From: a virus
Strand: one strand, 5' to 3'
Virus record (IMG/VR): IMGVR_UViG_3300047496_000213
Coordinates: 1-64,000 of that record
DNA length: 64,000 bases
The notes beneath the pieces were generated by a model. It searched no databases, was not told where the DNA came from, and worked only from the letters and a program-made list of their open reading frames with translations. Positions 2,449 through 62,167 of the stretch are shown in pieces (position 1 is the stretch's first letter; every line of letters starts with the position of its first letter). The position numbers and the translations under genes are program-made.

Positions 2449-2772
2449 ATGCGAGAATATATAGATTTGATTTTAATTTTTGAAGCTGTTGGGGATATCG
2501 AGAAAAAAGGTTCAGATAAAAGAGATGCTTTTCAAAAATTGGAAGATTTGATCAACCATCCTAATACTGAGCCAAATATTAAAAATATAGCTCAACGGAA
2601 ATTAGATTACTTGAAATCTAAATTAGCAGCCGAAAAAAAGTCGTCTCCAAACGAAATTTTGTCAATGTTTCATGATTTTTTTGAAGTAATTAATAAATTT
2701 TGTGGAATAGGAAATAATCGATATAAATTTAAGTCTTTGCAATCCATCAAAAGTAAGAATATTTCAATATAG
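2449..2772 (+). CDS. Hypothetical protein with MRE..FE N-terminal peptide and DUF2786-like helical motif; possibly frameshift-truncated
   Basis: MREYIDLILIFEA; KLEDLINHPNTEPNIKNIAQRKL; coding-like sequence continues in another frame to about 2885. Confidence 0.5.
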   Translation: MREYIDLILIFEAVGDIEKKGSDKRDAFQKLEDLINHPNTEPNIKNIAQRKLDYLKSKLAAEKKSSPNEILSMFHDFFEVINKFCGIGNNRYKFKSLQSIKSKNISI

Positions 2773-2932
2773 ATACTAATTTATCTATTATGAATATTTT
2801 AGATAATATGACTGACGAAGAAAATGATAAAATACTTTGGGACATGGCTAAAAATTATCTGATCCAAAACTTTTTGCTTGACTGATGTTCAATTCATGAT
2901 ATCTTACAAATATAGTCATTCAGGAGATAATA

Positions 2933-4228
2933 ATGCGCGCTCGTGAGATTATTGTTGAAAATCAAACTGGACTTTCTGAACAAGCGTTCGTTATGCTGCA
3001 AAAGCTTCGTAAGGGTATGGCGGCTTCTTTGAAAGCCGTGACCCTTGCGGAAATCTTCACCGTCATTCCCGGCTGGACCATCACCAAAAGTAAGTTCATG
3101 AAACCAAGCGATGGTGGTTGGATTCTTAAGGAATTGCCGGGTTCGAATTACAAGGTTTATAAGAAAATAAACGATGGCCGAATCCATTATTCAGCCAGCG
3201 TTTTAGAAGAAATTGAAGGCAATGATCACTACAATGTGGGTTGGCGGGGCCGCGATATTGAGAAGAAAGATCATTTGGTCAACGTAATTTTTCCGGCCCT
3301 TCAAAAGCTTTCGCAAGCCAAAGCCGGTAAGGTTCAAATTGTTGATCTGACGATTCATGAATATGTTGAAAACCGTCGCGATACGGTTGATGTTTCGTTT
3401 TTGCTCATGGTTCAATGCAACGGGTTCCTAATCACGTCTCCCGATCCCGATGGTCAAGCCTATGAAGTTTACGGCGATTATAAGAACGGCGCCATCGATC
3501 CTCATACTTTTGAAATGTTTTTTCATTGGGCGGTCGAAAATACAAACCTAATGGAAAGCATCCTGACCGTTCTTCATATGGAACCCCACGAAAAGAAGGT
3601 AGATTACGCTCAAGTTCGTTATGTGCCGCCTCCCACCGCCAGCGAAGAAGCAAAGCGCGTCTATAATCTTCTGGTTGAAATGACTAACGGTATTCGCGCC
3701 GAACAAAAGATCAACTTTATTAAGAATCTTAATGCTGTTTGCGACCGCTTTGAAAAGCTGGTGGCTAGCGATGATATGCGTGCGGACGAATATCGTAAAA
3801 TGAATCCTATCATCAATCATGCTTTCAATGTTCGTAAGGGTGTGAACACTCGCGAACCAAATTGGGAAGAAATTATTGAAAAGGATGCTGAACGTTCGGT
3901 TACTGAAATCCAAAACATGTTCGTTTACAAGAATACCCGTAAGCTGGCTTCTATCCTTACCGCCAAGGGCAACATGAATGAACCAGAAATCCTTGATCTC
4001 AACTGTAATCGAGGTATGATCATGGGTTCTATAAAGTTCACCTTCACTGATGGATCGTCCTTTGTGGTGGATAACAGCATTGTCCAATCTTCGATGCCGG
4101 ATAGTTTGGGCCGCTATACTTACTTCTACAGGTTCCCCACAACATTCCATGGCGTTGTGATGCCTGATGGTAGTAAGATGGGTCAACCTTCTGAGGAACG
4201 AATGAACGAAATTTTCGTTAAAGCGTAA
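2933..4228 (+). CDS. Hypothetical jumbo-phage protein, putative virion internal protein
   Basis: SD AGGAG; N-terminus MRAREIIVE; 431-aa ORF. Confidence 0.7.
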   Translation: MRAREIIVENQTGLSEQAFVMLQKLRKGMAASLKAVTLAEIFTVIPGWTITKSKFMKPSDGGWILKELPGSNYKVYKKINDGRIHYSASVLEEIEGNDHYNVGWRGRDIEKKDHLVNVIFPALQKLSQAKAGKVQIVDLTIHEYVENRRDTVDVSFLLMVQCNGFLITSPDPDGQAYEVYGDYKNGAIDPHTFEMFFHWAVENTNLMESILTVLHMEPHEKKVDYAQVRYVPPPTASEEAKRVYNLLVEMTNGIRAEQKINFIKNLNAVCDRFEKLVASDDMRADEYRKMNPIINHAFNVRKGVNTREPNWEEIIEKDAERSVTEIQNMFVYKNTRKLASILTAKGNMNEPEILDLNCNRGMIMGSIKFTFTDGSSFVVDNSIVQSSMPDSLGRYTYFYRFPTTFHGVVMPDGSKMGQPSEERMNEIFVKA

Positions 4229-5277: not shown

Positions 5278-5594
5278 GAAGGAAACTTATAGAATACTAT
5301 ATAATTAAACATAGACAGTGGCGTAAACGTATTGCCAAAAAGCAAAGCAATCATTGTTATTATTGTTCTACGACATTTGACGACAATAATTTGCAACTAC
5401 GATGCACACTTGATCATTTTCTGCCAATTTCTTTGGGTGGCATTGATGATAGAAAAAATACCGTAGCTGCTTGTTTTCGTTGTAATAATCGGAAAGACAA
5501 TCTTCATCCAAAAGATTTTCCGGCATCAGACGAATTTTCAGAAAATTATCAAAAACGTTTATATAAACTGTATGATTTTAAAAGACTCGTTTGA
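5274..5594 (+). CDS. HNH endonuclease
   Basis: CYYC...TLDHFLPISLGG...NTVAACFRCNNRK. Confidence 0.9.
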   Translation: MRRKLIEYYIIKHRQWRKRIAKKQSNHCYYCSTTFDDNNLQLRCTLDHFLPISLGGIDDRKNTVAACFRCNNRKDNLHPKDFPASDEFSENYQKRLYKLYDFKRLV

Positions 5595-6720
5595 TCGATT
5601 GAACGCGATCAGCGGGAAGTCTGAATTCGGATTCACCTAAAAGATATTCATCGGTCTGTTCTAATCTGACTTCACAGGCTAGAACACCGATATCTTTTTG
5701 CTCGCGATCTCTCATAATTTCCACTAATCGTTTTACTCCTATGAAAACAGGATTAACTCGAATTTTTGAGTGAGCCAGATAGTAGGAATACAGCATGACG
5801 ACATCTTCTGGTGTCTTGACCCAATCGAACCCAGGATGGCCGCCATGCTGCTTTGCTAATCGTTCCTCAATACCTTCTGCTTGACCCCAACGAATAATGG
5901 TTCTGGCTGTTAGTTCTCCATGAGCAATAGCCCAAATGTCTTTGAAACAGCGCATGATGTTACGAGCTATTTCTATATCGTGAGTGAACGATATGGTGGT
6001 CTGCTCTCCAAAATTACCGAGGCCAACCCGTTCCACTGGTTTTTCTGATGAAAAGCCAGTTTCCAAAATCTCATTACAAAATGCGGTAGCGTGATAAAGA
6101 GTTTCTTGTTCTTCATGATCTGGACGATAGTTCCCATGATAACTTGATCCAAGAATTTTATCGATTACGGTCAATTTTCTTTTTATAAGCTCGAATACTT
6201 TTTTAGCAGAATCAATAGCATGTTTCATCATTCTGAAACCTTTTAGAAGACCCATAGCTTGGACATATTCTTCATCTTGTAGATTGTCAGGATCGCCTTC
6301 TTTGTAGCCATATTTGACGGCGCCAGCTTCGGCATTTTCAAAATTACTTAATTCTAGAAATGGTTCCATGTAAGAGAATGTTCCAAGAATATATTTCCAA
6401 TGATTCTTTCCAAATTGTAGATACGCTTTAATATTATCAATAAGCCTATCTATTGGAACATTTCTTTCTAAAAAATATTCTTTGGTATACAGTAAGTTAT
6501 TATATAAAATATTACTGCCACCATCCCAAAAATTTTCATCATAAGACAACCACATATCAAGCATTTTTTCGCCATCTCTGGTATTATTTTTTTCTATAAT
6601 AGCAGTAGCTTCTTGAATTTCTTGTTTTATAGCAACAAGGTCTTTGACGCGATTCTTCAAAAATAAAGGAAGATTACGCGGCCTGTTTTCAATAGCTTCA
6701 TTTATTTCATGAAAACGCAT
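5578..6720 (-). CDS. ADP-ribosyltransferase-like protein, putative virion internal protein
   Basis: Probable start MRFHEINEA, coupled to the upstream stop; LYHAT, GLG, ISFTHD and GESEFR motifs. Confidence 0.6.
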   Translation of the reverse strand: MRFHEINEAIENRPRNLPLFLKNRVKDLVAIKQEIQEATAIIEKNNTRDGEKMLDMWLSYDENFWDGGSNILYNNLLYTKEYFLERNVPIDRLIDNIKAYLQFGKNHWKYILGTFSYMEPFLELSNFENAEAGAVKYGYKEGDPDNLQDEEYVQAMGLLKGFRMMKHAIDSAKKVFELIKRKLTVIDKILGSSYHGNYRPDHEEQETLYHATAFCNEILETGFSSEKPVERVGLGNFGEQTTISFTHDIEIARNIMRCFKDIWAIAHGELTARTIIRWGQAEGIEERLAKQHGGHPGFDWVKTPEDVVMLYSYYLAHSKIRVNPVFIGVKRLVEIMRDREQKDIGVLACEVRLEQTDEYLLGESEFRLPADRVQSIKRVF

Positions 6721-7502
6721 TACGGAAGGTGTTGCCAAACGTATCCCGCAACCGCATCTGTCACTATCATTTTTCGATAACCTTTTTTGATCTTAGTTTG
6801 GAATATTTTTTCACCATCGTTAAGGCTATCTATCATTTTGGTAGACAATCTGCCTTGATATTTACCCCAACATACGAAATATTCATTTCGTTTAGAGTCA
6901 TAATATACTCCATATACTTTGTCGTGATTGTTTTCGGCATCTTGTAATCTTGCAAAATAATACAATGTTATGTTTTTGTATTGTGGACCAGCCGCATTTG
7001 GTGCTTCATCGTAATCATTATTTGATGTGTTATTGTAATTTTTGTTTGAATTTTTTGACGATTTTTCAGATTTCTTTGCATTATCTTTTTTGGCTTGCTC
7101 TTCTTCACGTTTTCTACGAAGTTCGGCAGCGGCGGCTTCTCTGGCTTCACGTTCGCGTTGACGTTTTTCTCGTTCTTGTGCTTCTTTGCGCCAATTTCCG
7201 GTTTCTTCCCGGTTCATACCAGCACTAGATTGCCCGCTACCATTTTTGATGGCTTCGAACCGTTGTAAGAAAGTCTTTTTGGTCGCATCTGACATATTTT
7301 CTGCTTCTGCGTTGGCTTTGATTTCAAAACGTTTCATAGCTTCACGCGCAGCGGCCTTCTCTCCTTCTGTTCCCCCTCGGTCAATGAGGGCCTTGATACC
7401 TCTAGCTCTAGATAAAAACGATTCGGTATCAAATTCGAGAAGGATACCTTCTGAAACGATTTGATAGATTTCCATAAGTTGGATATGATCGCGGATATTC
7501 AT
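6720..7502 (-). CDS. WGR-domain protein with N-terminal DUF2786-like helix and coiled coil
   Basis: HDKVYGVY...FVCWGKYQG...KIKKGY (WGR); RGGTEGEKAAAREA; TATAAATA 5 nt upstream of the ATG. Confidence 0.75.
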   Translation of the reverse strand: MNIRDHIQLMEIYQIVSEGILLEFDTESFLSRARGIKALIDRGGTEGEKAAAREAMKRFEIKANAEAENMSDATKKTFLQRFEAIKNGSGQSSAGMNREETGNWRKEAQEREKRQREREAREAAAAELRRKREEEQAKKDNAKKSEKSSKNSNKNYNNTSNNDYDEAPNAAGPQYKNITLYYFARLQDAENNHDKVYGVYYDSKRNEYFVCWGKYQGRLSTKMIDSLNDGEKIFQTKIKKGYRKMIVTDAVAGYVWQHLP

Positions 7503-7556
7503 TTGACTATTTATAAAACATCTTGACTTTTGCGTGGCATTTTTTCATCATGTAAG

Positions 7557-8009
7557 ATGATGTATGATATCACCGATAAAGAAGAGCGCGCCGCCCAAAT
7601 GGTGGCGACAGTTTGTCAAAATTTATTGATGTATGGCGCAATAGATCGCACCAAAAATCTATACTCCAATTATGCAATAGTTATGGGCTTACGTCTCGAT
7701 TGCTATTCAGAAAATAAGATTGAAGATATTGTCATAGATACTCAGTTAAAGAAATCGTTACGCCCTATACCAAGACATATGATATTCTATACACTTTTTA
7801 CTAAAAACTGGACAGCGGATATTTTATACGACGCGCGAGGTTATTTATACTTTCCAGACATTTCATCGTCAGATCAAAAAAATATAAAATGGGGGGGATA
7901 TTATCATTGTTTGCTTCGTTTTAGAGTAACGGATCAAGATGCATTCAATAAAGATATGTCTATATTGAAAATGATAGACGATTGGGAAGATCATATACGT
8001 ATAGAATAA
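7557..8009 (+). CDS. Hypothetical early protein
   Basis: TTGACT upstream; ORF. Confidence 0.55.
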   Translation: MMYDITDKEERAAQMVATVCQNLLMYGAIDRTKNLYSNYAIVMGLRLDCYSENKIEDIVIDTQLKKSLRPIPRHMIFYTLFTKNWTADILYDARGYLYFPDISSSDQKNIKWGGYYHCLLRFRVTDQDAFNKDMSILKMIDDWEDHIRIE

Positions 8010-8016
8010 ATATAAT

Positions 8017-8676
8017 ATGCTTGAAGAAACGCATCTTCCCCTTCGTAAAGGAACTATATCTAACTCTCGCGGAGTATATAGTGCTTTCATCGTAGTCATG
8101 AGCCCAATGAATTTTCTCAAGTTGACTACTGACGAATATGCTTTCCGGCAAATTCAAGACGATGTTGAAGACAACTATCAAAGTGGACAGCATGCAGAAT
8201 ACCAACAACAAGGCAATTATGAACTTCCATATCTGATTATCGATTATTACTCTGGAAAAGTTATAGGGCACGAAGGCAGACATCGCGCCATGATGATTCT
8301 AAAAGAAGGCGGATCACGTTTTCCATGTTCTATAGAATGTAGACAACCTAAAATATGGGAAGTAAAATATTACGAATATGCAGATGATGACATGCATTCA
8401 CAAAGATTTACGAGTTCAGAAAAAGCCAGGGAATTCAGAGATTCGTTATATGCTGCAAATTTTGACAGTATAGATGAATTATACGATAATATAACTACCG
8501 AAATGGTTGGTGGCGGCTATATGCGTGGCTCTCCACGATCCAAAGGCTGGGATTATGACGCTTGGACTGTAGCTGACTTTCCAAAGTTTTTAGAAAGTCA
8601 ATTTACTTCAGTAAAAGTTCCCGCAACTGCTATGAGAATTGGATTAGTCAAAGGATATAGTCACTTTAACAGATGA
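8017..8676 (+). CDS. ParB/sulfiredoxin-like domain protein
   Basis: PYLII...VIGHEGRHRAM motif; TAAATA 4 nt before the ATG. Confidence 0.7.
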   Translation: MLEETHLPLRKGTISNSRGVYSAFIVVMSPMNFLKLTTDEYAFRQIQDDVEDNYQSGQHAEYQQQGNYELPYLIIDYYSGKVIGHEGRHRAMMILKEGGSRFPCSIECRQPKIWEVKYYEYADDDMHSQRFTSSEKAREFRDSLYAANFDSIDELYDNITTEMVGGGYMRGSPRSKGWDYDAWTVADFPKFLESQFTSVKVPATAMRIGLVKGYSHFNR

Positions 8677-8834
8677 AATATATAACGGAAGCTGAATACA
8701 ATATAGGTATTGCATATATAGATAAACATTTTGATGAAATTCGTCCTATTGGTTCACCAGAAGGAGATTACTTTGAAATGATTATGTATGCAGTTATGGA
8801 TTATGAAGAAACCCATTATGATATAGCAGATTAG
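8673..8834 (+). CDS. 53-aa protein resembling the HigA antitoxin N-terminal domain (not in the ORF track)
   Basis: ATGA overlap with the upstream gene; MKYITEAEYNIGIAYIDKHFDEIRPIGSPEGDYFEMIMYAVMDYEETHYDIAD. Confidence 0.65.
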   Translation: MKYITEAEYNIGIAYIDKHFDEIRPIGSPEGDYFEMIMYAVMDYEETHYDIAD

Positions 8835-9923: not shown

Positions 9924-11048
9924 TTAATTATTATTTTTGTCATAATCAATTTGACGGAATTTTGAGTAAGCAAGTTCAAGCAATCTTTGATGAAATTCTT
10001 GATAATGGTCGAAAGATTTTCTAAACATTTGTTCATGTTTCTTGAAATCATCGAAGTTTATGGTATCCAAAATCTTCACAGGAAATCGTTTCATCCCAGA
10101 TGTATAATCCGAATGCTCGCTAACTTTACCGAATCGTGGATCGACATACTTAACATCTTCTGGATCGACATAGAAAGGCACGCCTTCGCTGGCGCAATAA
10201 GACAGCGCATAAGTCATCATCATTCGTTTTATTTTGTCATTATCGCCACCAAATTGAACTAAAATACCCTTTCCATGTGGCACTCTTACCAAACATACAC
10301 CAAGGACCATTTTTTCTATCCAGTATTCGTCGGTATCATTGCCGGTATTCTTATAAATGTCCTTCAATTTTTTATCGTATAACACACAATCGTTATCACC
10401 GACATAGAGCATCCAATCTTTTGGATCATGTGTGGCATAATTTGCTGTTGATTTAGTTTGACGTATATCTACTTTTGCGCTGTTGATAATCTCTTTGGCT
10501 CTCTTTACAGACATTTTTCCAGATTGAACCATCTTTGTATACAATCCAGATTTCATCGCATTTCTAACCATTTCACGATATACTTTTTGGAATGTTCTAT
10601 AACCAGCGGAAGTGAACCCGCCAGATGTTTTAGTTGGTTCTAGTTCCCATGCAATTTTTCCGAGAATTGGGCCTAAGCCGAAGCCTCTATATTCTTGAGC
10701 CACTATGTATAATACACAACCCCATTCGTCCTGTAATGTTGCTACACATTGGTCGTTATCATCAAATATAGCAAAAGTATAGTCTTTACTATATGGTTTC
10801 ATTCGGTTTCTAAGTGGTTCTGGTCTTTGTCTTATTTCTAATTTTACACCGTTGATCTTTATAGTCTTAATTAATTTGGTATAATTGGATTTTTTAATAT
10901 ACTCTCCTAGTCCCGCTATTGATGCTCCACGTTCATAAGCAGTATCAGGATGCCATTTTCCGTTTTGACCAACAATCTGATAATATTCATCGAACGTCAA
11001 CAATGCTGGATTAAGCTGTTCTTTTTCAAAAAGGTCGATGATATGCAT
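9924..11048 (-). CDS. GNAT-like domain protein, putative virion internal protein
   Basis: VAQEYRGFGLG acetyl-CoA motif; SGGFTSAG; N-terminus MHIIDLFE; TATAAATA 5 nt upstream. Confidence 0.65.
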   Translation of the reverse strand: MHIIDLFEKEQLNPALLTFDEYYQIVGQNGKWHPDTAYERGASIAGLGEYIKKSNYTKLIKTIKINGVKLEIRQRPEPLRNRMKPYSKDYTFAIFDDNDQCVATLQDEWGCVLYIVAQEYRGFGLGPILGKIAWELEPTKTSGGFTSAGYRTFQKVYREMVRNAMKSGLYTKMVQSGKMSVKRAKEIINSAKVDIRQTKSTANYATHDPKDWMLYVGDNDCVLYDKKLKDIYKNTGNDTDEYWIEKMVLGVCLVRVPHGKGILVQFGGDNDKIKRMMMTYALSYCASEGVPFYVDPEDVKYVDPRFGKVSEHSDYTSGMKRFPVKILDTINFDDFKKHEQMFRKSFDHYQEFHQRLLELAYSKFRQIDYDKNNN

Positions 11049-11100
11049 TTATATATTTATAGTTGCTTGACAAAAACTCTAAATATGCGATTATACTTTC

Positions 11101-12110: not shown

Positions 12111-14891
12111 ATGACCAGAGATTATAAAGAAACGCTGTTTTTACCAACTACCTCATTTTCCCTTCAAGGCACGAAGGATGAAAATATGGTAAGATCGAGC
12201 TTTGACTATTCACCAACGGTTAATCCCGATTTCGTTTTGCATGATGGCCCTCCATATGCCAACGGCGACATTCATATGGGGCATGCTTTAAACAAAATCT
12301 TGAAAGATATGGTTGTTCAATCTCAGCGTGGGCTTGGAAAATCTGTTGAATACAGGCCGGGATGGGATTGCCACGGCTTGCCAATTGAATCACAAGTCGA
12401 AAAAGAACTTCTGGAACAAGGTATCGCAAAGAACGATCTTTCGGTGATGGATTTCCGCTCGCGTTGCAGAGAATATGCAATGTCGTGGGTGGAAACACAA
12501 AAGAAACAATTTCAGTCACTAGGCGTTAGAGCAGATTGGGATAATCCTTATTTGACGATGAATTTCAAAACTGAAGCGACAATCGTTTCGAAGTTTCATA
12601 GTATGCTTATGCGTAACTGTGTTTATCGTGGAACAAAACCAGTTCAATGGAGCACTGTTGAACAAACGGCGTTGGCTGAAGCCGAAGTAGATTACAAAAA
12701 TCTGAAAACACGATCTGTTTATGTTGCCTACACTATCGGCACAGATACAGAATGGATGCAGAATACTCGTGTTTTGATCTGGACTACTACACCATGGACG
12801 CTTCCCGCTAGTGCGGCAGTGGCCTTTAATCCAGATTTAGAATACGGCATCTATGAAGTTGTCGAAGTGGATAATGAAGCAAAATGTAAGCCGGGTGATC
12901 GCTTTATCCTAGCTGATGCTCGCGCAGAAGCGGTTATGACTGATATTCACGTTGATCGTTACACGTGGTTAGGCGCGACTGATCCTAGATTTTTGGTTGT
13001 TCGTCACCCCTTATATAAAGAAAATGAGGCGTTTGTTGCTGGCATTCCGTTGCTTCCTGGCAAGCATGTTACGGACGAAGCTGGAACCGGCTTGGTTCAT
13101 ACCGCGCCTGATCATGGACAAGAAGACTTCGCTTGCTGGAATGCTAGTAATCAAGGTGAATATCCTGTAGCTATCGGGCCGGATGGTGTGTATCTGGATT
13201 GGGTTCCGTATTTTGCCGGTCTGAATGTCTTGAATCAGACGCCAAAGGGCGAATATATTTTTGAATTCACCAACGCCAAAATCATCAAAGCGTTGGAAGA
13301 TGCTGGCAATTTGGTTGGCGTAAACAATCTGGTGCATTCTTATCCGCATTCTTGGCGTTCGAAGGCGCCGTTGGTCTATCGCGTCACTCCACAATGGTTC
13401 TTGCGCCTCAAAGATACACGCGAATTGGCTGTTAAACTTCTAGATAATGTGAAATTTTATCCAGAAAGTTCAAAAAATCGTCTTGTCGCATCGGTTGAAA
13501 ACCGTCCAGATTGGTTGCTAAGTCGGCAACGAGTTTGGGGGACGCCTATGGCAGTATTTCTGAACAATGTTAGTGGTGATGTTCTTCATTGTTGGGAGTT
13601 GAACGACAAAATCGCCAAGGTTTTCGCTGAAGAAGGCGGGGATGCTTGGTGGAAATATAGCACGTCGGAATGGTTCGCTGGTATCGATGCGATTTCTCAT
13701 CTTGATCCAAATCATTATGAAAAGGTTAACGACGTTCTCGACGTTTGGTTTGATTCCGGTTGCAGTTTCCATTTCATCGACAAGAAGCCAGACCTTTGTA
13801 TTGAAGGCTCTGATCAGCATAGAGGCTGGTATGGAAGCGCGTTGTTCGTTGGTCTGAATCACAATGTCAAGGCGCCCTGGAAGGCTCTGATGACGCATGG
13901 CTTTGTTCTCGACAAGAACGGCATCAAAATGTCTAAGAGTGCGGGGAATGTCGTTAATCCTCTGGTCGAAGCCAAAAAATACGGAACCGATGTTATTCGT
14001 ATGTGGGCGGCCATGAGTGATTACACGCAAGACATGCGTGTTGGTGATCAAATCCTCAAGACGACTTCCGAACAATATCGCAAGCTTCGGAATACGCTGC
14101 GCTATCTGGTCAGCAATCTGCAAGGATATGAGTTTGGAAAGTTCAAATCTGAGTTTGATTTTCCATTAGAAACGCATGTTTTATATCTTCTTGAATCCTT
14201 AGAAGAAAAAATTCGTCTGGCCTATTCCGAATACCGTTTCAATGACGTAATGCGTGATATCATGCAGTTTTGCAATAATGATTTGTCTGCGTTCTATTTC
14301 GATATCCGTAAAGACATGCTTTATTGTGATGCAGAGACTTCGGAAAATCGGCAAGCTTGCCTGGAAACCCTTTCGCGTGTTTTTGATTGTCTTACTTCTT
14401 GGCTTATGCCGATCCTTCCCTTTGCCGCTACCGAAGCTCGCCAACTGGTAGGACGTCCGGTAGATTCTGTTTTTGCTATGGCTCCGAATGTATCTCCGTG
14501 GGAATATGCGAACGAAAAACAATGGGCTGTTGTTCGCTCGACCATCAAGAATGTAAATGAAGCGTTGGAAGAAAAACGCAAGGCTAAAGAAATCGGCGGT
14601 GCTTTGGAAGCGAATGTTTTGGTATTCCTTCCTAAGGATGATTTCGCGGAGTTTTGTGATGGAGTAGATTTGCGTAATCAAGCGGTTGATTTCTTCAGAA
14701 CAAGTCAGGCGACCATCTTCGAATCTGTTGATGATTCGGTAAAAGTGGAAGTCTATAAAGCACAAGGTAATAAGTGTGCTCGTTCTTGGAAAATTCTTAC
14801 AGAAGTAGGGACAGATTCAGCGTATCCTGATTTGTCTCTGCGTGATGCGGAGGCGGTTAGACAATGGGATTTAAAAAATGGGTCGTTATAA
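12111..14891 (+). CDS. ileS: Isoleucyl-tRNA synthetase (bacterial type 1)
   Basis: HDGPPYANGDIHMGH, PGWDCHGLPIE, WTTTPWTLP (editing), EGSDQHRGW, KMSKS. Confidence 0.97.
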   Translation: MTRDYKETLFLPTTSFSLQGTKDENMVRSSFDYSPTVNPDFVLHDGPPYANGDIHMGHALNKILKDMVVQSQRGLGKSVEYRPGWDCHGLPIESQVEKELLEQGIAKNDLSVMDFRSRCREYAMSWVETQKKQFQSLGVRADWDNPYLTMNFKTEATIVSKFHSMLMRNCVYRGTKPVQWSTVEQTALAEAEVDYKNLKTRSVYVAYTIGTDTEWMQNTRVLIWTTTPWTLPASAAVAFNPDLEYGIYEVVEVDNEAKCKPGDRFILADARAEAVMTDIHVDRYTWLGATDPRFLVVRHPLYKENEAFVAGIPLLPGKHVTDEAGTGLVHTAPDHGQEDFACWNASNQGEYPVAIGPDGVYLDWVPYFAGLNVLNQTPKGEYIFEFTNAKIIKALEDAGNLVGVNNLVHSYPHSWRSKAPLVYRVTPQWFLRLKDTRELAVKLLDNVKFYPESSKNRLVASVENRPDWLLSRQRVWGTPMAVFLNNVSGDVLHCWELNDKIAKVFAEEGGDAWWKYSTSEWFAGIDAISHLDPNHYEKVNDVLDVWFDSGCSFHFIDKKPDLCIEGSDQHRGWYGSALFVGLNHNVKAPWKALMTHGFVLDKNGIKMSKSAGNVVNPLVEAKKYGTDVIRMWAAMSDYTQDMRVGDQILKTTSEQYRKLRNTLRYLVSNLQGYEFGKFKSEFDFPLETHVLYLLESLEEKIRLAYSEYRFNDVMRDIMQFCNNDLSAFYFDIRKDMLYCDAETSENRQACLETLSRVFDCLTSWLMPILPFAATEARQLVGRPVDSVFAMAPNVSPWEYANEKQWAVVRSTIKNVNEALEEKRKAKEIGGALEANVLVFLPKDDFAEFCDGVDLRNQAVDFFRTSQATIFESVDDSVKVEVYKAQGNKCARSWKILTEVGTDSAYPDLSLRDAEAVRQWDLKNGSL

Positions 14892-15814: not shown

Positions 15815-16144
15815 ATGTTAACGTACAACTTCCATGAAGAGGAATATATTGAAGATGGCCTTTATGGGCCTTTATATAATAACATACCATTTAGTCACTC
15901 ATTAGAGGATGAATATTTGCCATATTGGATACCTTTTAAAGAAGATTATTTTATAGAAGATTATAATTTTATTTCTTATGAAACACATGAAGAAATACGA
16001 AAGTGGTTGTTAGATAATATCGGTCCAGAATTAATCTATAGTTATCAAATTTTACATGGAGTGTACGAATGGAGATCATATTATGATGGATGTCGGTTTA
16101 AAAATAAAAATGATGCCGCTTTGTTCAAACTATTCTGGTGCTAA
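15815..16144 (+). CDS. Small FKMFW-family protein
   Basis: Ends FKNKNDAALFKLFWC. Confidence 0.75.
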   Translation: MLTYNFHEEEYIEDGLYGPLYNNIPFSHSLEDEYLPYWIPFKEDYFIEDYNFISYETHEEIRKWLLDNIGPELIYSYQILHGVYEWRSYYDGCRFKNKNDAALFKLFWC

Positions 16145-16151
16145 ATAATGC

Positions 16152-16793
16152 ATGTTTTCAATGCGTCATTTTATAAACTTAACGGATTCATATCAAGATG
16201 ATTCTAATAAAATTGACGCTAAATCTTTGGAAGATAACATAAACCTTGATTTTTCTGGATTTGAGAAAGAAAATAAACAGCTATCTTCTGAATATATAGT
16301 TGATGATAAGGAAATACAAAAGGCTATAAAGCATTATACTCATGCATCATCTATCAATGATGAATTGATACGAGCTAATGGTAATATAGATAAACTGCCA
16401 ACAGATTTTCGAACAGAATACAATCTGTTAATGAAGCTAGAAGGCAATCTTCAAGAAAATCATCATGTCTATAGTGGTACAGGAACTTTCAATCCTCTTG
16501 ATGTAGTGGTAGATAATGTATTCAATACTCCAGCTTTTTTAAGTACCTCTTTAAGTATAAAAGTCGCCGTCAAAACAGACAATTTTAGACGAAAAGATTC
16601 CGATGAAGATCATATCATCCATTTATTTCTTCCTAAAGGATTTACAGGCGGTTTTTATATAGCTCCTTATTCCTATGATCCAGAAGAACTGGAATTCCTA
16701 ATATTTCCAAATGAAAAATTTCGTCATATTGGAGATCAAAAATTAGAATTAGATGGTGTTCATAGAATAATACATAGTTTTAAACCTGTTTGA
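16152..16793 (+). CDS. ADP-ribosyltransferase (Alt/VIP2-like)
   Basis: IKHYT...SINDEL, VYSG, FLSTS, EELEFLI; TAAATA 4 nt upstream. Confidence 0.85.
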   Translation: MFSMRHFINLTDSYQDDSNKIDAKSLEDNINLDFSGFEKENKQLSSEYIVDDKEIQKAIKHYTHASSINDELIRANGNIDKLPTDFRTEYNLLMKLEGNLQENHHVYSGTGTFNPLDVVVDNVFNTPAFLSTSLSIKVAVKTDNFRRKDSDEDHIIHLFLPKGFTGGFYIAPYSYDPEELEFLIFPNEKFRHIGDQKLELDGVHRIIHSFKPV

Positions 16794-17919: not shown

Positions 17920-18385
17920 ATGAGTAAAATTTCTGAAATGGAAACGGCGTTGGCCGAGTTGGAAAAAGAAAAAAATAGTAAAATTCATGAATTACCAGTA
18001 ATTTTAGTTCCAGACAAAATTGGATATGTTCGTAGAAATAATAGCGAAGCCATTTTTTGTAATTAAGTTGTCTGGAATAGAAAATATATACACATTTTTT
18101 CCTGTTGAAGAACAATATGTTTCCAAGTTTACTATGGAACCTCAGAAATATGAATTTGAGTATGAAATGGAAACTTCGCGTTTCGCTGAAATAGTTCAAT
18201 GGATTGATTCTCAATCAGGAGCAGAAAAATGGTCAGTAAATCAAAAAGTTTTTAGAAAATTTGTGCAGTTTCATGGAAATATATGTGCTACTTCGTCAGT
18301 ATTTTCAGAAATTGAAAAAGTTTTAACTGTTTTTAGTTTTTCTTGTGATAAAGCAACTACATTATTTAAGATGTTTCAGACATGA
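17920..18385 (+). pseudogene. FKMF-family gene split by a frameshift in a T6 run at 18053-18058; paralogue of 18717..19169
   Basis: The upstream frame MSKISEM...LPVILVPDKIGYVRRNNSEAIF aligns with LPVILTPEAVGYSRDGENNTIY. The downstream frame continues VIKLSG...ATTLFKMFQT. Confidence 0.65.
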
Positions 18386-18720
18386 TCGATGATGTAATTG
18401 AAATGTTTCGGGCTACGCAAAAGGTCGAAGAAAAACAACATCTGATAGCGAACAATCCGATGGAAAGTAGATCATCGGTTGATCAACCGTTTGAGGTTCA
18501 ATATGCAAATCTCCATGGGCTAACAGAGTATAGCAGCATACAAGAAACAATGTATCGTGCGGCTATTTGGATAACGGATCAATTGCCAACAGCAAAATGG
18601 TCTGTAAGAATTGAGGAAATCAGAAACGCAAAAGTAGTAGACCGTATAGAACAAACGAATATTTACATAGCGTTTGATACCGCAGAAGCTGCCACTCTAT
18701 TTAAGGTGTTTCAGACATGA
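18382..18720 (+). CDS. Small FKMF-family protein
   Basis: W...KWSV...AFDTAEAATLFKVFQT. Confidence 0.75.
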   Translation: MIDDVIEMFRATQKVEEKQHLIANNPMESRSSVDQPFEVQYANLHGLTEYSSIQETMYRAAIWITDQLPTAKWSVRIEEIRNAKVVDRIEQTNIYIAFDTAEAATLFKVFQT

Positions 18721-19169
18721 TCGATGAAATTGCTAATATGTTTTCTGCTATGCAGAAAGCGGAAGAAAAAAAGAGATTACAGTTAGAACAAGAAAGCCGA
18801 CTTCCGGTTATATTAACACCAGAAGCAGTAGGTTATTCGCGAGATGGTGAAAATAATACTATATACATTATTAGACTTACTGGTAAAGGAAAACCTCCGA
18901 ACCTGAAATCCAATCTAAAAATAGAAGAAAAATTAGCTCAACACTTTACTATTGAAGAACAAAATTTTGAAGTCGAGTATAAAACACAAATGTCTAACGA
19001 GCAGTTTTTAGAAGCAGTAGAATGGATAAATTCTCAATTAGCATCAAAGTGGTCGGTCTTACAAAAAACTTTCTTAAATCCTGGAAGAACTATGATAGAA
19101 AAAACAACAACATATTTTAGTTTTTCTACATCGAAGGATGCTGCTCTTTTCAAAATGTTTCATACCTGA
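18717..19169 (+). CDS. Small FKMF-family protein
   Basis: W...KWSV...FSFSTSKDAALFKMFHT. Confidence 0.75.
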   Translation: MIDEIANMFSAMQKAEEKKRLQLEQESRLPVILTPEAVGYSRDGENNTIYIIRLTGKGKPPNLKSNLKIEEKLAQHFTIEEQNFEVEYKTQMSNEQFLEAVEWINSQLASKWSVLQKTFLNPGRTMIEKTTTYFSFSTSKDAALFKMFHT

Positions 19170-19994: not shown

Positions 19995-20024
19995 CAAAAA
20001 ATCACTCATAGGTTATAAAACAGT

Positions 20025-20558: not shown

Positions 20559-20616
20559 AAAACACTAAATACAGGAATATATTGAACATTTAGTCTACAT
20601 TTAGTATAAATACAGT

Positions 20617-22497: not shown

Positions 22498-22509
22498 ATG
22501 ATTATTTAA

Positions 22510-23334: not shown

Positions 23335-23367
23335 AATGTATTTATCTAAACCATACTGGACCGGCGT

Positions 23368-44731: not shown

Positions 44732-44738
44732 ATAATTG

Positions 44739-45425: not shown

Positions 45426-45952
45426 TGCGCCAGTTTATGAAAATCGTTGAAAGTAATGTAAATCTTGAAACAGTCGCTCGAATGTTAAACAAAGATTTAG
45501 AAGGCGGCGGTTATGATGTGGTAATGCAATACATTCGAATGGATAATGATCGTGATCCATATGATGATACTGAAATACCAGACGAAGACGCGTTAGTTGC
45601 AGCGTGGTGTGAAGAAAAAGTCGCACAAGAATATCGTAATTTGCAATGGATGTTTCAGCAAAATGGAGGCAAGTTGAAGGTTTGGCGAGAGATTACTGCG
45701 CCGGAAGATTGGAAAATTGATTCGAGACATCCTGGAATATTTTGGTCTTGGGACAAAGCAGCGGCAGAAGCCCATTGGGGTGATTTTGGTAATAATCATG
45801 TAAGATGGCTCATTGAAGCTATCGTTGCGGTTAATGATGTAGATTGGCCACATACAATTGTTCAGAATGCTAATCCAGATTATTCAGATGAATGTGAAAT
45901 TCGATTAATTCCTAATAGACCAATTAATATTATTTCATATTGGCAAGACTAA
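45425..45952 (+). CDS. ADP-ribosyltransferase-like protein, putative virion internal protein
   Basis: MRQFMKIVES, VWREI, GIFWSWD, DECEIRL. Confidence 0.6.
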   Translation: MRQFMKIVESNVNLETVARMLNKDLEGGGYDVVMQYIRMDNDRDPYDDTEIPDEDALVAAWCEEKVAQEYRNLQWMFQQNGGKLKVWREITAPEDWKIDSRHPGIFWSWDKAAAEAHWGDFGNNHVRWLIEAIVAVNDVDWPHTIVQNANPDYSDECEIRLIPNRPINIISYWQD

Positions 45953-47337: not shown

Positions 47338-49398
47338 ATGACCGTTGAGTTATGGTACGAAAAATATCGTCCTAAAACAATTGATGAATATGTATGGAAA
47401 GACCTCAACCAAAAACACAAAGTTGAAGAATGGATTGCTGCTGGAGCTACCCCGCATGTTCTATTTTCTGGTAGTACCGGAACCGGAAAAGCCCAACCTT
47501 TAAGCAGTAAAGTTCTTACACCTAAAGGATGGGTATTGATGCAAGATTTACAATTAGGAGATATTGTAGTAACTCCTTCTGGTAGAAACGCACCAATTAT
47601 AGGTATTTTTCCACAAGGGTTAAAAACGGTTTACCAAATAGTTTTTGATGATGGTAAAACGACGCAAGCATGTGCGGAGCACTTGTGGGAAGTAAAACAT
47701 AGTGATTGGAGAAAAAAATCAAAAAACGAAAACTATGGTATTAGAGTATTACCTACAGATAGTTTAGAAGACAAACTACAAAAATTAAGTTTAATAAAAA
47801 CTAATCACCGTTTAGGTATTAGATTATGTGAACCTGTTGATTTTAGTACGGAAAACAATCTTCCTATTCATCCATATGTATTAGGTTGTCTACTTGGTGA
47901 CGGTTGTTTAACCGAAGAAGGTTCTATAAGAATTTCAAGTGCAGATGAAGAATTATTAACTAAATTTGAAAGTCTGCTTCCAGAAGGATTGAGATTAAGC
48001 CAATGTGGGCAATATGATTATCGTATAATCGGCAAAAATGGTTTTAATTTTCTCCGGAAAAACAAGAAAGGTATTTTTTGCAATCCGTTAAAAATAGCAT
48101 TGAACGATTTAGGGCTTATTGGTACATATTCTCATACCAAATTCATTCCAGAAGGGTATAAATATGCACCACTTAATGCCCGAAAAGAGCTACTTATGGG
48201 CTTAATGGATACTGATGGTACGGTTTGTTCTGACAATTCTATAACTCATAGAGGCGGCGGCGCACTGTCGTATTGTTCAGTCAGCCAAACATTGAGTAAA
48301 GATGTTCAAGAATTGGTTTGGTCTCTTGGCGGAATCGCTAAAATCACTATCAAAACACCAAGTTATACATATAAAAAAGAAAAAAAACTTGGGCGTCTAG
48401 CGTATTCGGTTAATATTAGAATGAAAAATCCAGAACAAGTCTTTTCGCTATCGAGAAAAATAAAGAAATGTCCCGAAAAATATCAATATAAAGGATCGAT
48501 TTGTAATAATATTAAAAGCATTACGGCTCTTGATGAAAAAGTGGAAATGCAGTGTATAATGATAGATGATCCAGAACATTTATATATTACAGATGACTAT
48601 ATTCCCACTCATAATACGGCATTGGCCGAACTTTTAATGAAGGAACTTGGTATTCCTAAAGGCGATATTCTTAAAAAGAATGCTAGTAAAGAACGTCGTA
48701 TTGATGATTTACAAAATTCAATAGTAAATTTTGCTTCTACTTGGGCTTTAAATGATACAGGTTTTAAATATGTAATTTTGGATGAAGCCGATACTCTTTC
48801 TCCACTTTCACAGAAATTTCTCCGTGGGGAAATGGATAAATTTGAAGCAAGTTGTAGGTTTATTTTTACTTGCAATTATCCAAAAGATATTACCGATCCT
48901 ATTCTTGGTCGGGTTCAAGAAATGAAGTTTCATGCTCTAGATCGTAATGAATGTATTGTTCGGGCTGGAGAAATTCTTACTGTAGAAAATGTAGAATTTG
49001 ATATAGAAGATTTAATGAAGTATGTTGAGATAACTTATCCAAATCTTCGAAAATGTATTGGGCTTCTTCAGCAAAATACCGTTAGAGGAAAACTCAATCC
49101 ACCCCCACCCCCAGAAGAAATAACTACGAATAAAGATTATCTTCTAGAAGCTATTGTATGTTTTCGCCAAAACAAAATTTTAGAAGGACGGAAACTTATA
49201 ATAGAAAAAGCTAAATTTGAAGAATATCCAGACATCTATAGGTATTTCTATAAAAATTTAGATTTATGGGGCGATCAAAAACTACAAGATGAAGCTCTAT
49301 TAATTATTAGTAGAGGGTTGATAGATCATAGCATTTGTGCCGATAGCGAAATAAATTTGAGTGCAACGTTATGTCGTTTAGGTAGATTATTAAGGTAA
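47338..49398 (+). CDS. RFC-type clamp-loader subunit containing an intein
   Basis: WYEKYRPKT, GSTGTGK|T Walker A, VILDEADTL, CRFIFTCNY. Confidence 0.92.
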   Translation: MTVELWYEKYRPKTIDEYVWKDLNQKHKVEEWIAAGATPHVLFSGSTGTGKAQPLSSKVLTPKGWVLMQDLQLGDIVVTPSGRNAPIIGIFPQGLKTVYQIVFDDGKTTQACAEHLWEVKHSDWRKKSKNENYGIRVLPTDSLEDKLQKLSLIKTNHRLGIRLCEPVDFSTENNLPIHPYVLGCLLGDGCLTEEGSIRISSADEELLTKFESLLPEGLRLSQCGQYDYRIIGKNGFNFLRKNKKGIFCNPLKIALNDLGLIGTYSHTKFIPEGYKYAPLNARKELLMGLMDTDGTVCSDNSITHRGGGALSYCSVSQTLSKDVQELVWSLGGIAKITIKTPSYTYKKEKKLGRLAYSVNIRMKNPEQVFSLSRKIKKCPEKYQYKGSICNNIKSITALDEKVEMQCIMIDDPEHLYITDDYIPTHNTALAELLMKELGIPKGDILKKNASKERRIDDLQNSIVNFASTWALNDTGFKYVILDEADTLSPLSQKFLRGEMDKFEASCRFIFTCNYPKDITDPILGRVQEMKFHALDRNECIVRAGEILTVENVEFDIEDLMKYVEITYPNLRKCIGLLQQNTVRGKLNPPPPPEEITTNKDYLLEAIVCFRQNKILEGRKLIIEKAKFEEYPDIYRYFYKNLDLWGDQKLQDEALLIISRGLIDHSICADSEINLSATLCRLGRLLR
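47491..48615 (+). mobile_element. Class-3-type intein (375 aa) with LAGLIDADG endonuclease
   Basis: Starts AQPL and ends THN/T; W (HLW), C (MQCI), T (THN) triad; LGCLLGDG and LMGLMDTDG. Confidence 0.88.
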
Positions 49399-57864: not shown

Positions 57865-57869
57865 AAAAC

Positions 57870-60251: not shown

Positions 60252-60331
60252 AGAATGCGAACGTATTCGGTTGAATCAGGAGATGCCAGACCTTTGGTTT
60301 GTGTTTGAGGACTACAACGATTTTTTCATGT

Positions 60332-62167
60332 TTAAGATGATGTATTAGGGCTTGATGATTTATTTTCAATACGATCAATTATATGTTTACAGTATTTTGT
60401 AAAATAGCTTTTTTCAAAATTTTTCATAAATTCTATTAGTTTTGGTTTTAGTATTAAAATAGATTCTAATATCTTATCATTTGGAAAATCTCTAAAATAA
60501 GTGTCTATATAATTATAAAATTCTACGTCATCTATACTATTTATACACGCTTCAAATGATTCATTTGGATACAAAGAACATAAGTAACTTGAAAGAAAAT
60601 GACCGAATTGAATACGGAATTCCCTATCATTAACCTGAAACATCAACCATTTCGTTAGTTTTACTGCTCGTTCTGGTGTCATAATTTCTATTTGGACATG
60701 CCTGCCAAGAGACAAATATATGTTGACAAAATAATGAATATTGATATCGAATAGATAGACGGCAGCTTTCGGCATTTGCCTAATAAAGTAGTAAGAAAAC
60801 ACATCATATCTAGCTGGATTTAATCTTATTCCTTCAATAACTTCATCTTCTGTAAATTGAATATGTCGAATAGTATAACTATTAGGATAATTTTCTGAAG
60901 TACCGATGGCGTTTATAATTATTTTTCTAATTTCTGGAGTTGAACTAAAATCTAAATAAGGGGTAGCCTCAACTAAAGATGATATTTGCTCTGTTTTTGC
61001 ACTCTTAAATAATTGAGTTAGTTCTTCCTCATCTAATGGTATGCAAGATATAAAATTCCGATCATAATTTAAAATAATTGAAATATAGTTTTTCTTAAAA
61101 TAATCTTTAACATAATCTGGCATTTTCTCCCAATTCCAATTGTATACATCAGGAAACTTTTCCATTAATGCGAGTATTTCTTCTATTGTTAATTTTCCAG
61201 CATTAACAAATTTCATAAAAAAGTTAGGATTTTTCTCAACAAACGTAAAACTATTTGATGGTTTTGGGTTTATATTACGAATAGTCTCTAAAGGTTTAAT
61301 ACCTTTTATACTGAAAAATACTGCTTGAGTAGGCTCGTTAACATGAATTATGCCTTCATCGGCTCTATCTACGGCTCCCTCATATCCTAACATTCGAAAC
61401 AATTTTGCCCATTGAACGATATGATTGGTTTTCAATCCTTCAGACAAAATAGATTTTTTTGAAGTAAATCCTTCATAATACTCGTCTTCTTCGTCATTTG
61501 TATTTTCATAAGGATCGAAATGATTATCTACTGTGTTTTCTTGCGTATTGTTAATTATATTTTCCATGAAGAAAGCGGCGACGCGCGTAATATTCCAAAT
61601 CATTCCTCCATATGTTTGAACTAATGCGCGTTTAGAAATCTTTATAGGATCAAAAACCGGAATATTGTCAGCATATTTCAAGCCCATATTTTTCAGTATA
61701 TCAAAAATTTTAGCTATATCAGAAGTCATATCACTTCGAGAATAATTTTCTAAATCCAACATTCTTCCGGTTTCTTGAAAGACTTGAAGATACGGCTCGT
61801 CGCCAGAAAAAGGTACTTTACCATTATGCTCTAAAACATATTCAACTGGATAAGAATATATACCCAATGGGGTATTATCCCATGATGATTTAGGATTAAT
61901 ACCTAATTTCGCTCCTTTAGTATTTTTATCTTTAAAGCGAGATGGATCAATATATGTGTTCCCATATTGATGATTTTTCTGAAGATGTGTGTATTGGGCG
62001 TCTTCATGAGATTGTTTTCCTACATCTGTAGTATATGATACATATACATCTAAACGATTTTTATATTTTTGTAATTCTTCAAGGGCTGAACGTTTATAGT
62101 TAACGGAATTATTTCGTCTTAACTCCGTTAAGAATTTAGAACTTTCGAATAATTCAGACAAAAACAT
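60332..62167 (-). CDS. Large putative virion internal protein with ART-like N-terminal half and helical C-terminal half
   Basis: MFLSELFES; TPLGIYSYP; LGYEGAVD...GIIHVNEPTQAVFF; ATAAATA 4 nt upstream. Confidence 0.55.
   Translation of the reverse strand: MFLSELFESSKFLTELRRNNSVNYKRSALEELQKYKNRLDVYVSYTTDVGKQSHEDAQYTHLQKNHQYGNTYIDPSRFKDKNTKGAKLGINPKSSWDNTPLGIYSYPVEYVLEHNGKVPFSGDEPYLQVFQETGRMLDLENYSRSDMTSDIAKIFDILKNMGLKYADNIPVFDPIKISKRALVQTYGGMIWNITRVAAFFMENIINNTQENTVDNHFDPYENTNDEEDEYYEGFTSKKSILSEGLKTNHIVQWAKLFRMLGYEGAVDRADEGIIHVNEPTQAVFFSIKGIKPLETIRNINPKPSNSFTFVEKNPNFFMKFVNAGKLTIEEILALMEKFPDVYNWNWEKMPDYVKDYFKKNYISIILNYDRNFISCIPLDEEELTQLFKSAKTEQISSLVEATPYLDFSSTPEIRKIIINAIGTSENYPNSYTIRHIQFTEDEVIEGIRLNPARYDVFSYYFIRQMPKAAVYLFDINIHYFVNIYLSLGRHVQIEIMTPERAVKLTKWLMFQVNDREFRIQFGHFLSSYLCSLYPNESFEACINSIDDVEFYNYIDTYFRDFPNDKILESILILKPKLIEFMKNFEKSYFTKYCKHIIDRIENKSSSPNTSS

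Follow-up and report, generated by a model that had tools for sequence, protein, structure and literature searches.

Candidate T4-type head-loading leaders on unrelated late proteins of a T4-related jumbo phage, with late boxes set against the start codon

Introduction

The internal proteins of the T-even phages have only a targeting sequence in common (PMC3012670). Genetic work in T4 places targeting at residues 4 and 7 of this sequence and processing at residues 8 and 10 (PMC9026906). The T4 propeptides (NC_000866) read MKTYQEFIAE in ipII and ipIII, MELITELFDE in Alt, MLLIPE in gp68, and MNEPQLLIE in gp21. Here we analyze a 64,000-nucleotide stretch of viral DNA (positions 1 to 64,000 of IMG/VR record IMGVR_UViG_3300047496_000213; the window) in which a set of unrelated late proteins begins with a short peptide, here called the leader; as in T4 capsid targeting, this is a short N-terminal tag with an [LI]-x-E end. 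We consider it likely that the leaders are head-loading propeptides of the T4 type, that a prohead protease of the S77 family removes them, and that the proteins behind them are delivered as cargo.

T4 and this contig also share a gp20, gp21, gp22-like, and gp23 head module. The leaders resemble the T4 sequence MKTYQEFIAE in type only, with a basic residue at position 2, an aromatic residue at position 4, and a hydrophobic-x-E end; they are too short for statistical alignment. Unlike T4, this phage has the consensus M-R-x-F-I-x-L-V-E plus two further classes, and whereas T4 has a handful of tagged genes, about 15 or more lie in these 64 kb and roughly 50 in a complete genome of the group. T4 Alt, like the product of the window gene at 24833, is an ADP-ribosyltransferase (ART) behind a short leader, and its MELITELFDE, like MLLIPE of gp68, is close to our class B (described below); the ARTs here differ in being small (187 amino acids, aa) and of the ART-PolyVal type. 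ART-like proteins are the most frequent kind of recognizable cargo here. The truncated 5' duplicates of alt in T4 (alt.-1 and alt.-2) parallel the leader remnants described below.

Two other systems invite comparison. In phiKZ and SPN3US, giant-phage ejection proteins are targeted to the head and trimmed by the prohead protease, as we propose here, and identical N-termini stand on diverged paralogues (PMC5694885). These phages belong to another lineage, however, and their propeptides are 80-160 residues long with [AS]-x-E sites (A-x-E in SPN3US, S-x-E in phiKZ), whereas the leaders here are 8-12 residues long and end in [LI]-x-E. Polyvalent proteins include the ART-PolyVal and GNAT families, also found here, and have been proposed to be injected effectors (Iyer et al. 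2017; PMC7824862); in contrast to those giant multidomain polypeptides, each domain here is a separate small tagged protein.

Expression can be compared as well. The T4 late promoter, TATAAATA, occupies -13 to -6 (PMC1524935). The window phage uses the same box as the gp55-dependent late promoter of T4, including the CTAAATA variant known from Aeh1, but here the box abuts the start codon at a distance of 4-6 nucleotides (nt). In T4, the starts of four tag genes (ipI, ipII, ipIII, and alt) have a Shine-Dalgarno sequence, and the two visible late boxes, those of genes 22 and 24, are separated from the ATG by 26-27 nt.

Results

Three classes of leader share a prohead protease-type site

We distinguish three classes of leader: class A, M-R-x-[FWY]-I-x-[LI]-x-E, with an extra residue ahead of the Glu in some members; class B, M-[LF]-L-x-[DE]-L-F-E; and class C, M-R-[YWF]-x-E-I-x-E. 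Common to all three is the terminal [LI]-x-E, the site of the T4-type prohead protease. In the window, class A or its variants head the open reading frames (ORFs) starting at 2449, 24331, 24833, 29095, 44739, 45425, and probably 16152; class B heads those at 11048 and 62167; class C or its variants head those at 6720, 36565, and, weakly, 2933. Leaders thus head no fewer than eleven, and probably some fifteen, of the window's late proteins, which are otherwise unrelated and range in size from 53 to 611 aa. Further leader genes lie past the window on the same contig (74222-74854, 75028-75465, and 78818-79651), together with remnants at 71625 and 74180.

The initial annotation had listed 15 such N-termini as one motif on otherwise unrelated proteins. 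All 15 lie at the coordinates and on the strands given there, and the proteins show no mutual BLASTP match; indeed, an all-against-all BLASTP search found no match between any leader-bearing proteins. The single motif fared less well. As written, its pattern is unspecific, with matches in 15-28% of controls, the set divides into the three classes above, and one member, MKYITE, is unsupported; what held up is the enrichment of the class motifs over controls. A search for codons spelling M-R-x-[FWY]-I-x-[LI]-[VIFM]-E gave 7 matches in the 81.8 kb record, compared to 0 in its reversed control and 0 in four related jumbo phages (1.46 Mb in total); the class A codon pattern is absent from PA5oct, GAP32, and a Vibrio phage. 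A position-specific scoring matrix (PSSM) trained on other genomes gives scores above 0 to 8 of 116 called N-termini compared to 0 of 493 internal Met positions. The loose motif [ILFM]-x-E with the Glu at positions 4-12, on the other hand, has a frequency of 15% among internal windows and of 28% among other N-termini.

Only M1, R2, and E9 are near-invariant columns among 150 distinct leader proteins. Within class A, the most conserved positions are 4 (aromatic), 7 (Leu or Ile; P3), and 9 (Glu; P1); position 7 is Leu or Ile in 54 of 54 cases, though the search pattern also admitted Phe and Met. The Arg, Leu, Ile, Val, and Glu codons vary synonymously between leader copies. In addition, the classes replace one another between orthologues: both the ART gene at 24833 and the gene for the head-module protein at 78818 carry class A here and class C in G001, a complete relative of 499.6 kb with 57% GC. 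Synonymous variation and class swaps together argue that the peptide, and not the DNA, is selected.

A T4-type head module on the same contig

The window is the first part of an 81,816-bp IMG/VR record, which is estimated by CheckV to be 14% complete and probably comes from a moss metagenome. A search of sequencing runs found the window in the probable source moss metagenomes and in no RNA run. Beyond the window, the contig encodes the following head genes:

65359-66573, minus strand: Gp23 major capsid gene (Pfam E=9e-93)
66593-67837, minus strand: coiled-coil scaffold-like gene
70925-71560, minus strand: prohead protease gene, Peptidase_S77 (Pfam E=9e-26)
80357-81790, minus strand: Portal_T4 gene (Pfam E=6e-40)

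The S77 protease matches the solved T4 gp21 structure 5JBL, and exactly one S77 protease is present in each complete leader-bearing relative. (Five mid-sized leader-bearing IMG/VR contigs are fragments, 18-45% complete, in which the S77 search carries no weight.) An alignment shows that the capsid proteins of the contig, G001, Phosso, and PA5oct retain L-x-E exactly at the cleavage position of T4 gp23, which we take to lie after Glu65. The N-terminus of the capsid protein, M-x-K-L-F-E-S-x-W, is itself conserved in this phage, G001, Phosso, PA5oct, and Atu_ph07 (gp215). Since it resembles class B (x-D-L-F-E), class B tags may mimic the tip of the capsid protein's propeptide.

By capsid protein, the nearest cultured phage is Sinorhizobium phage Phosso (78% identity), and PA5oct and the Rak2-like jumbo phages stand at about 66%. 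Agrobacterium phage Atu_ph07 shares 64% identity in the capsid protein, 53% in the protease, and 50% in the portal. The window phage is a T4-related jumbo phage, probably with a full genome of several hundred kb. A megablast search with 20 kb against a phage collection gave no match. We dropped a kinship with phiCbK-like Caulobacter phages, suggested by the RNA ligase gene; because the head genes point to Phosso, PA5oct, and the Rak2-like phages, we read the RNA ligase signal as horizontal transfer.

Leader-bearing proteins are found in virions of relatives

Atu_ph07 has a related head module, and many of its virion proteins begin with M-[RK]-W-x-Q-L-x-E, MRLIDLLE, or MLLSELFD; its leaders differ from those here in lacking the TAAATA-N4-ATG layout and go unmentioned in the published description (PMC6102473), and no more than two window proteins have homologues in this phage. 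The virion proteome of this phage comprises 140 proteins detected by mass spectrometry (MS) (PMC6102473, Table S5). We mapped these entries to Atu_ph07 ORFs by molecular weight; 139 of the 140 fall in one monotone chain along the genome, and five neighbouring mapped entries agree to 0.01 kDa. We then applied three class PSSMs, trained solely on IMG/VR and G001 leaders, to the 829 called Atu_ph07 ORFs. Virion proteins account for 16 of the 19 ORFs scoring at least 6, compared to 114 of the 810 others (p=4e-11). A hand count by family puts 6 of 9 in the virion against a base rate of 16%. We adopted the class PSSMs because the literal loose pattern did not separate virion from non-virion proteins (28% versus 15%, p=0.08); the strict class patterns of the window phage match one Atu_ph07 ORF only.

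Individual homologues can also be traced. The Atu_ph07 homologue of the class B-like window gene 9924-11048 is gp377 (27% identity, E=2e-24 in a collection search), recovered from purified virions with 6 peptides, and that of contig gene 77670-77912 is gp199. Besides the capsid, protease, and portal, only one other window protein with an Atu_ph07 homologue maps to the virion list (26139-26429, gp393); none of the metabolic and replication enzymes with Atu_ph07 homologues is on it. In PA5oct, two MS-flagged structural proteins encoded near the head module start with such leaders, MKINDIITE and MRFIE.

Atu_ph07 (MF403008) also holds a set of paralogues of about 29-31 kDa, gp53-gp63 in a tandem array at about 39.5-50.6 kb plus gp408, gp482, and gp483, all of which are MS-detected in virions and begin with M-[RK]-W-x-Q-L-x-E. 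They are listed as hypothetical proteins (PMC6102473). In several of them the leader is closely followed by Y-R-G, a motif that points to Alt-like ADP-ribosyltransferases. Class A-like leaders (e.g. R-K-F-I-N-I-L-N-E-S) occur in Atu_ph07 gp33, gp206, and gp594 and in Phosso (L003:14940-15518), where they lie 2-6 residues inside the annotated Met behind a Shine-Dalgarno sequence; the three Atu_ph07 proteins are in the virion proteome.

The initial annotation had likened the peptide to a capsid-targeting sequence, and this reading is supported by the N-terminal position, the placement ahead of complete domains in unrelated proteins, the [LI]-x-E end, the gp21-family protease, the retained capsid site, and the virion link in Atu_ph07.

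A late box lies against the start codon

TAAATA lies 4-6 nt before the ATG of 22 ORFs of at least 30 aa, and 0 ORFs have it at a spacer of 2, 3, or 7 nt. The box usually takes the form (T/A)ATAAATA. Shine-Dalgarno sequences precede 0 of 18 called box genes compared to 41 of 98 other genes. If the box occupies -13 to -6 as in T4, a spacer of 4-6 nt would make position +1 coincide with, or adjoin, the A of the start codon. Late transcripts are therefore predicted, from this spacing, to start at or beside that A and to be leaderless. In the literature, we found no account of a T4-type late box abutting the start codon.

No gp55 homologue is present in the 81.8 kb fragment, and three complete relatives give one weak gp55-like match each (E from 3e-6 to 7e-5). 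Table S3 of PMC6102473 gives gp694 of Atu_ph07 as 'unresolved'. At MF403008 244-2066, Atu_ph07 carries an annotated translation initiation factor 3 (IF3) together with a ClpX-like ATPase. IF3 discriminates against leaderless mRNAs, and it may therefore be relevant whether IF3 is encoded in the group with leaderless layout (G000 and G001).

In G001, TAAATA stands 4 or 5 nt from the ATG in 91 ORFs of at least 50 aa, and other spacings are almost absent. About half of these box genes start with a leader, and about 40 do not; among those with the box and no leader are the genes for tail sheath, large terminase, and virion structural proteins. Conversely, 6 of the 29 class A leaders in G001 stand behind ordinary Shine-Dalgarno starts. 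Since the box also heads structural genes that have no leader, it is a general late signal, whereas only some of the late proteins are marked by a leader. The initial annotation was right that most of its genes have TAAATA just upstream: 10 of the 15 have the box, those at 6720, 8673, and 45425 are second genes overlapping the stop of a box-bearing gene, and those at 2449 and 2933 are without it. Its idea of one promoter-plus-signal cassette does not survive, given the box on sheath, terminase, and structural genes and the leaders behind Shine-Dalgarno sequences. In its place we propose three interchangeable tags for head loading and, separable from them, a late promoter of general use that would yield leaderless mRNAs.

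Scanned for the box followed by a class A leader, IMG/VR gave 65 loci, compared to 3 loci when the spacer was set to 8-10 nt; for classes B and C the scan gave 15 and 62 loci. The matches to box plus class A sit on complete genomes of 415-608 kb or on fragments with an estimated full size of about 350-600 kb. A tblastn search of cultured phages with 44739-45425 and an IMG/VR cargo family gave no match, and a 508-aa cargo family gave weak cyanophage matches only; hence we found no cultured phage with exactly these leaders, nor did we find a paper describing them in jumbo phages.

Divergent intergenic regions have a further feature. At window positions 7508-7556, 11054-11100, 29102-29193, and 62172-62233, GTCAAG precedes the late box of the minus-strand gene; on the opposite strand this reads CTTGAC, a sigma70-like -35 element for the divergent plus-strand gene. 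This arrangement suggests that early-type and late-type promoters share very short spacers (5 of 18 box genes).

Leader genes and box-bearing controls of the window

The features below are given with their coordinates; a range in brackets is that of the gene alone.

2449-2772, plus strand: 107-aa ORF with a class A leader carrying a 3-residue insertion (MREYIDLILIFE); PSSM score 12.8; no adjacent TAAATA box; no Pfam or PHROG match
2933-4228, plus strand: 431-aa ORF, MRAREIIVE, weakly class C-like (PSSM score -6.3); Shine-Dalgarno AGGAG and no TAAATA box; its N-terminus fits only M-[RK]-x(3-5)-[LI]-x-E, and it has no family match in Pfam or PHROG
5578-6720, minus strand: 380-aa ORF with class C leader MRFHEINE followed by A, an exact fit to the consensus of 50 distinct IMG/VR N-termini; probably co-transcribed with box-bearing 6720-7502, because its start overlaps the stop of that gene
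6720-7513 (gene 6720-7502), minus strand: 260-aa ORF, MNIRDHIQLME, with TATAAATA 5 nt ahead of the ATG; L-M-E stands at positions 9-11, the N-terminus fits none of the class models, and the leader assignment is weak
8007-8676 (gene 8017-8676), plus strand: 219-aa late ORF, MLEETHLPL, a degenerate leader with TAAATA 4 nt ahead of the ATG; the G001 orthologue has the box and starts MLLCDLLE, class B-like
8673-8834, plus strand: 53-aa ORF, MKYITE, whose start overlaps the stop of box-bearing 8017-8676; I-T-E at positions 4-6 resembles T4 Alt MELITE, against a motif background of 15-28%, and the leader is unsupported beyond chance
9924-11059 (gene 9924-11048), minus strand: 374-aa ORF, MHIIDLFE, class B-like, with TATAAATA 5 nt ahead of the ATG
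16142-16793, plus strand: 213-aa ORF, MFS-MRHFINLTD, class A-like but offset by 3 residues and with Asp for Glu; TAAATA 4 nt before the first ATG; weak PHROG match to a head maturation protease family, in its C-terminal part
20607-21924, plus strand: 435-aa late ORF with a TAAATA box, a hydrophobic N-terminus, and no leader; a control
21916-22508, minus strand: 193-aa kinase-like ORF, MKLHELYG, a short L-H-E leader candidate with TAAATA 5 nt ahead of the ATG; PHROG 15752 protein kinase (E=5e-7); the G001 orthologue has the box and starts MRIFELSRPD
22510-23905 (genes 22510-23334 and 23368-23895), minus strand: two late ORFs, each with TAAATA 4 nt ahead of the ATG and no leader; controls
23907-24341, minus strand: broken class A gene, MREWINLVE, with TATAAATA and then 4 nt; stop after 31 codons, with another frame continuing to 23907
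24823-25396, plus strand: 187-aa ADP-ribosyltransferase, MREWINLFE, class A (PSSM score 25.4), with TATAAATA 4 nt ahead of the ATG; a single-domain protein with Pfam ART-PolyVal from residue 31 (E=1.2e-7)
28520-29107, minus strand: 191-aa ORF, class A with an insertion (MRNFIDAIQITE); TAAATA 6 nt ahead of the ATG; PSSM score 4.8
36555-37230, plus strand: 221-aa ORF, MRYVEIISE, a class C variant with TATAAATA 4 nt ahead of the ATG; no family match in Pfam or PHROG
44729-45425, plus strand: 228-aa ORF, MREFIDIVE, class A (PSSM score 22.9), with a second L-N-E at positions 11-13 and ATAAATA 4 nt ahead of the ATG
45425-45952, plus strand: 175-aa ORF, MRQFMKIVE, class A (PSSM score 12.8); a weak G001 match starts MRKWIALFE; probably co-transcribed with 44739-45425, because its start overlaps the stop of that gene
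60332-62177 (gene 60332-62167), minus strand: 611-aa ORF, MFLSELFE, class B, with ATAAATA 4 nt ahead of the ATG; the G001 orthologue has the box, starts MFLQDLFE, and so keeps class B; a full-length comparison with T4 Alt found no similarity

In T4, an Asp at P1 like that of the ORF at 16142-16793 blocks processing and not targeting (PMC9026906). Three leader remnants, at 23907-24341 (minus strand) and at contig positions 71611-71672 (plus strand) and 74070-74191 (minus strand), each have an intact late box and class A leader, with an early stop after 31, 15, and 36 codons, respectively. Gene decay, errors in the assembly, and frameshift sites are all possible explanations.

Cargo proteins have complete domains of unrelated folds

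The leaders are add-ons ahead of complete domains: behind them, the ART-PolyVal domain starts at about residue 30, the Fe/Mn superoxide dismutase domain at about 16-20, and the nucleoside deoxyribosyltransferase domain at 24. A Pfam search with 150 distinct leader proteins identified 7 Fe/Mn superoxide dismutases, 7 ART-PolyVal proteins, about 6 GNAT acetyltransferases, and a few others, leaving at least 110 of the 150 with no Pfam family. The diverse enzymes named in the initial annotation are thus found in part, with ART-PolyVal, GNAT, and kinase-like proteins recovered and no Pfam or PHROG match to its WGR and Zn-finger domains (E<=0.01, proteins tested).

Other genes of the window

Auxiliary genes in the window include an isoleucyl-tRNA synthetase, an intein-bearing clamp loader, an RNA ligase, an NAD synthase, a thymidine kinase, and PhoH. 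Four loci deserve separate mention:

12111-14891, plus strand: full-length class I tRNA synthetase of 926 aa (tRNA-synt_1, E=3e-117, plus an anticodon-binding domain), probably an isoleucyl-tRNA synthetase, with 37% identity to its counterpart in a 500 kb relative
18026-19169, plus strand: three tandem paralogues with 31-39% identity and no leader
19395-20558, plus strand: two tandem paralogues with 55% identity and no leader
47338-49398, plus strand: gp44-like clamp-loader gene split by an intein-like insert bearing a LAGLIDADG domain

Discussion

If the leaders work as in T4, a propeptide of 8-12 residues would dock each protein to the scaffolding core of the prohead, and a serine protease of the gp21 family would remove it after the terminal [LI]-x-E. 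The mature protein would stay in the head and leave with the DNA at infection. Most tagged genes would be expressed from leaderless late mRNAs, as suggested by (T/C)TAAATA 4-6 nt before the ATG and the lack of a Shine-Dalgarno sequence. The principle is already known from T4; new here are the scale, the three types of tag, and the promoter set against the start codon.

Several findings weigh against this interpretation. Many of the cargo proteins are enzymes, and the cargo lacks the basic character of T4 IPI-III; the median isoelectric point of its mature parts, 6.7, is the same as that of other proteins (6.7), and housekeeping-type cargo such as superoxide dismutase has no obvious use in a capsid. 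The G001 orthologue of 9924-11048 keeps the box and lacks the leader. Under the T4 rule, a 4-nt spacer puts +1 on the T of the ATG. The layout of box plus leader is absent from the five cultured jumbo phages that we scanned (Phosso, SCTP-2, RsoM2USA, Atu_ph07, and XacN1). The Atu_ph07 leaders are variants, with Leu for the Ile of this group, and mostly follow Shine-Dalgarno starts. Of the Atu_ph07 leader proteins that we examined, 14, all of them mapped virion entries, are one paralogue family; 3 high-scoring ORFs were undetected in virions, the virion list includes likely contaminants such as ribonucleotide reductase and a RecA-like protein, and the published coverage values do not reveal cleavage.

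An alternative that we regard as improbable is that the leaders mark proteins of the prohead core or scaffold, which would be degraded and expelled like T4 gp67, gp68, and gp22. Position speaks for it: the leader genes 74222-74854, 75028-75465, 77670-77912, and 78818-79651 lie between portal and protease, where T4 has 67 and 68. In addition, an 80-aa protein of the head module has the same length as T4 gp67 and the same place after the portal gene, and the acidic protein of 72805-73824 also starts with L-x-E sites. Some leader proteins of the head module may indeed be core components that are degraded and not delivered. As an account of the whole set, however, this explanation conflicts with the many leader proteins that are enzymes with complete catalytic-type domains (ART, GNAT, superoxide dismutase, kinase-like). 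Most of them also have few internal [LI]-x-E sites (74222-74854 has the leader site only), and such proteins of Atu_ph07 were recovered from mature virions at 15-60% coverage.

Equally improbable, in our estimate, is that the peptide is a tag for some other late process with no head loading, such as recognition by an AAA+ unfoldase or translocase of the ClpX or BCS1 type, a degron that limits toxic enzymes, or a shared chaperone. Met-basic-hydrophobic N-termini resemble one class of ClpX recognition signal, and much of the cargo consists of enzymes that could be toxic. ATPases of ClpX-like and BCS1-like type are encoded by relatives and have been proposed to move proteins into heads (PMC7824862; Atu_ph07 annotation). 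Such a process leaves unexplained why the leaders invariably end in an [LI]-x-E that matches the gp21-type site, why they resemble T4 propeptides, why leader-positive Atu_ph07 ORFs are virion proteins, and why the late genes for tail and terminase have no leaders.

Still less probable is a requirement at the level of DNA or RNA, in which the leaderless genes would conserve a downstream box, a recombination cassette, or the sequence transcribed first, and the peptide would have no function. The coupling of box and leader is tight (65 loci at 4-6 nt versus 3 at 8-10 nt), and the sites at 24331, 71625, and 74180, with their truncated remnants, look like places of turnover. Against this, residues stay constant while codons vary synonymously, and three classes of peptide replace one another in orthologues. 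Nor are box and leader inseparable: the 6 of 29 class A leaders of G001 and most of those of Atu_ph07 are behind Shine-Dalgarno starts, and about 40 of the 91 G001 box genes have no leader. Finally, chance resemblance of short N-termini, which the loose motif in 15-28% of controls might suggest, is refuted for class A, B, and C members by the zero or near-zero control counts of the class motifs, although the weak single members 8673 and, to a lesser degree, 2933 and 6720-7502 are not separable from chance and may individually be due to it.

Head loading of the T4 type therefore remains our preferred interpretation. For the wider group, we put at about even the chance that an uncultured, T4-related clade with genomes of 350-600 kb has some 50 proteins per genome with one of three interchangeable tags of 8-10 residues, a packaged and injected proteome that can be read from sequence, and nearly all of its late mRNAs leaderless, made from a gp55-type box 4-5 nt ahead of the ATG. 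Provided that the tags act as they do in T4, a sequence rule would be at hand to list the proteins that giant phages bring into the cell along with their DNA. The recognizable part of this list includes ADP-ribosyltransferases, acetyltransferases, kinase-like proteins, and superoxide dismutases, and most of the rest belongs to no known family. An anonymous pool of genes would become a set of ranked candidates for first-strike proteins of host takeover and counter-defence, and the tags could act as packaging handles in the engineering of large phage heads. A late promoter abutting the ATG across about 90 genes of one genome, in which other genes use Shine-Dalgarno sequences, would be an unusually systematic case of leaderless translation. 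If true, these phages would combine an expression layout undescribed for T4-type phages with a cargo system that exceeds its T4 counterpart by an order of magnitude.

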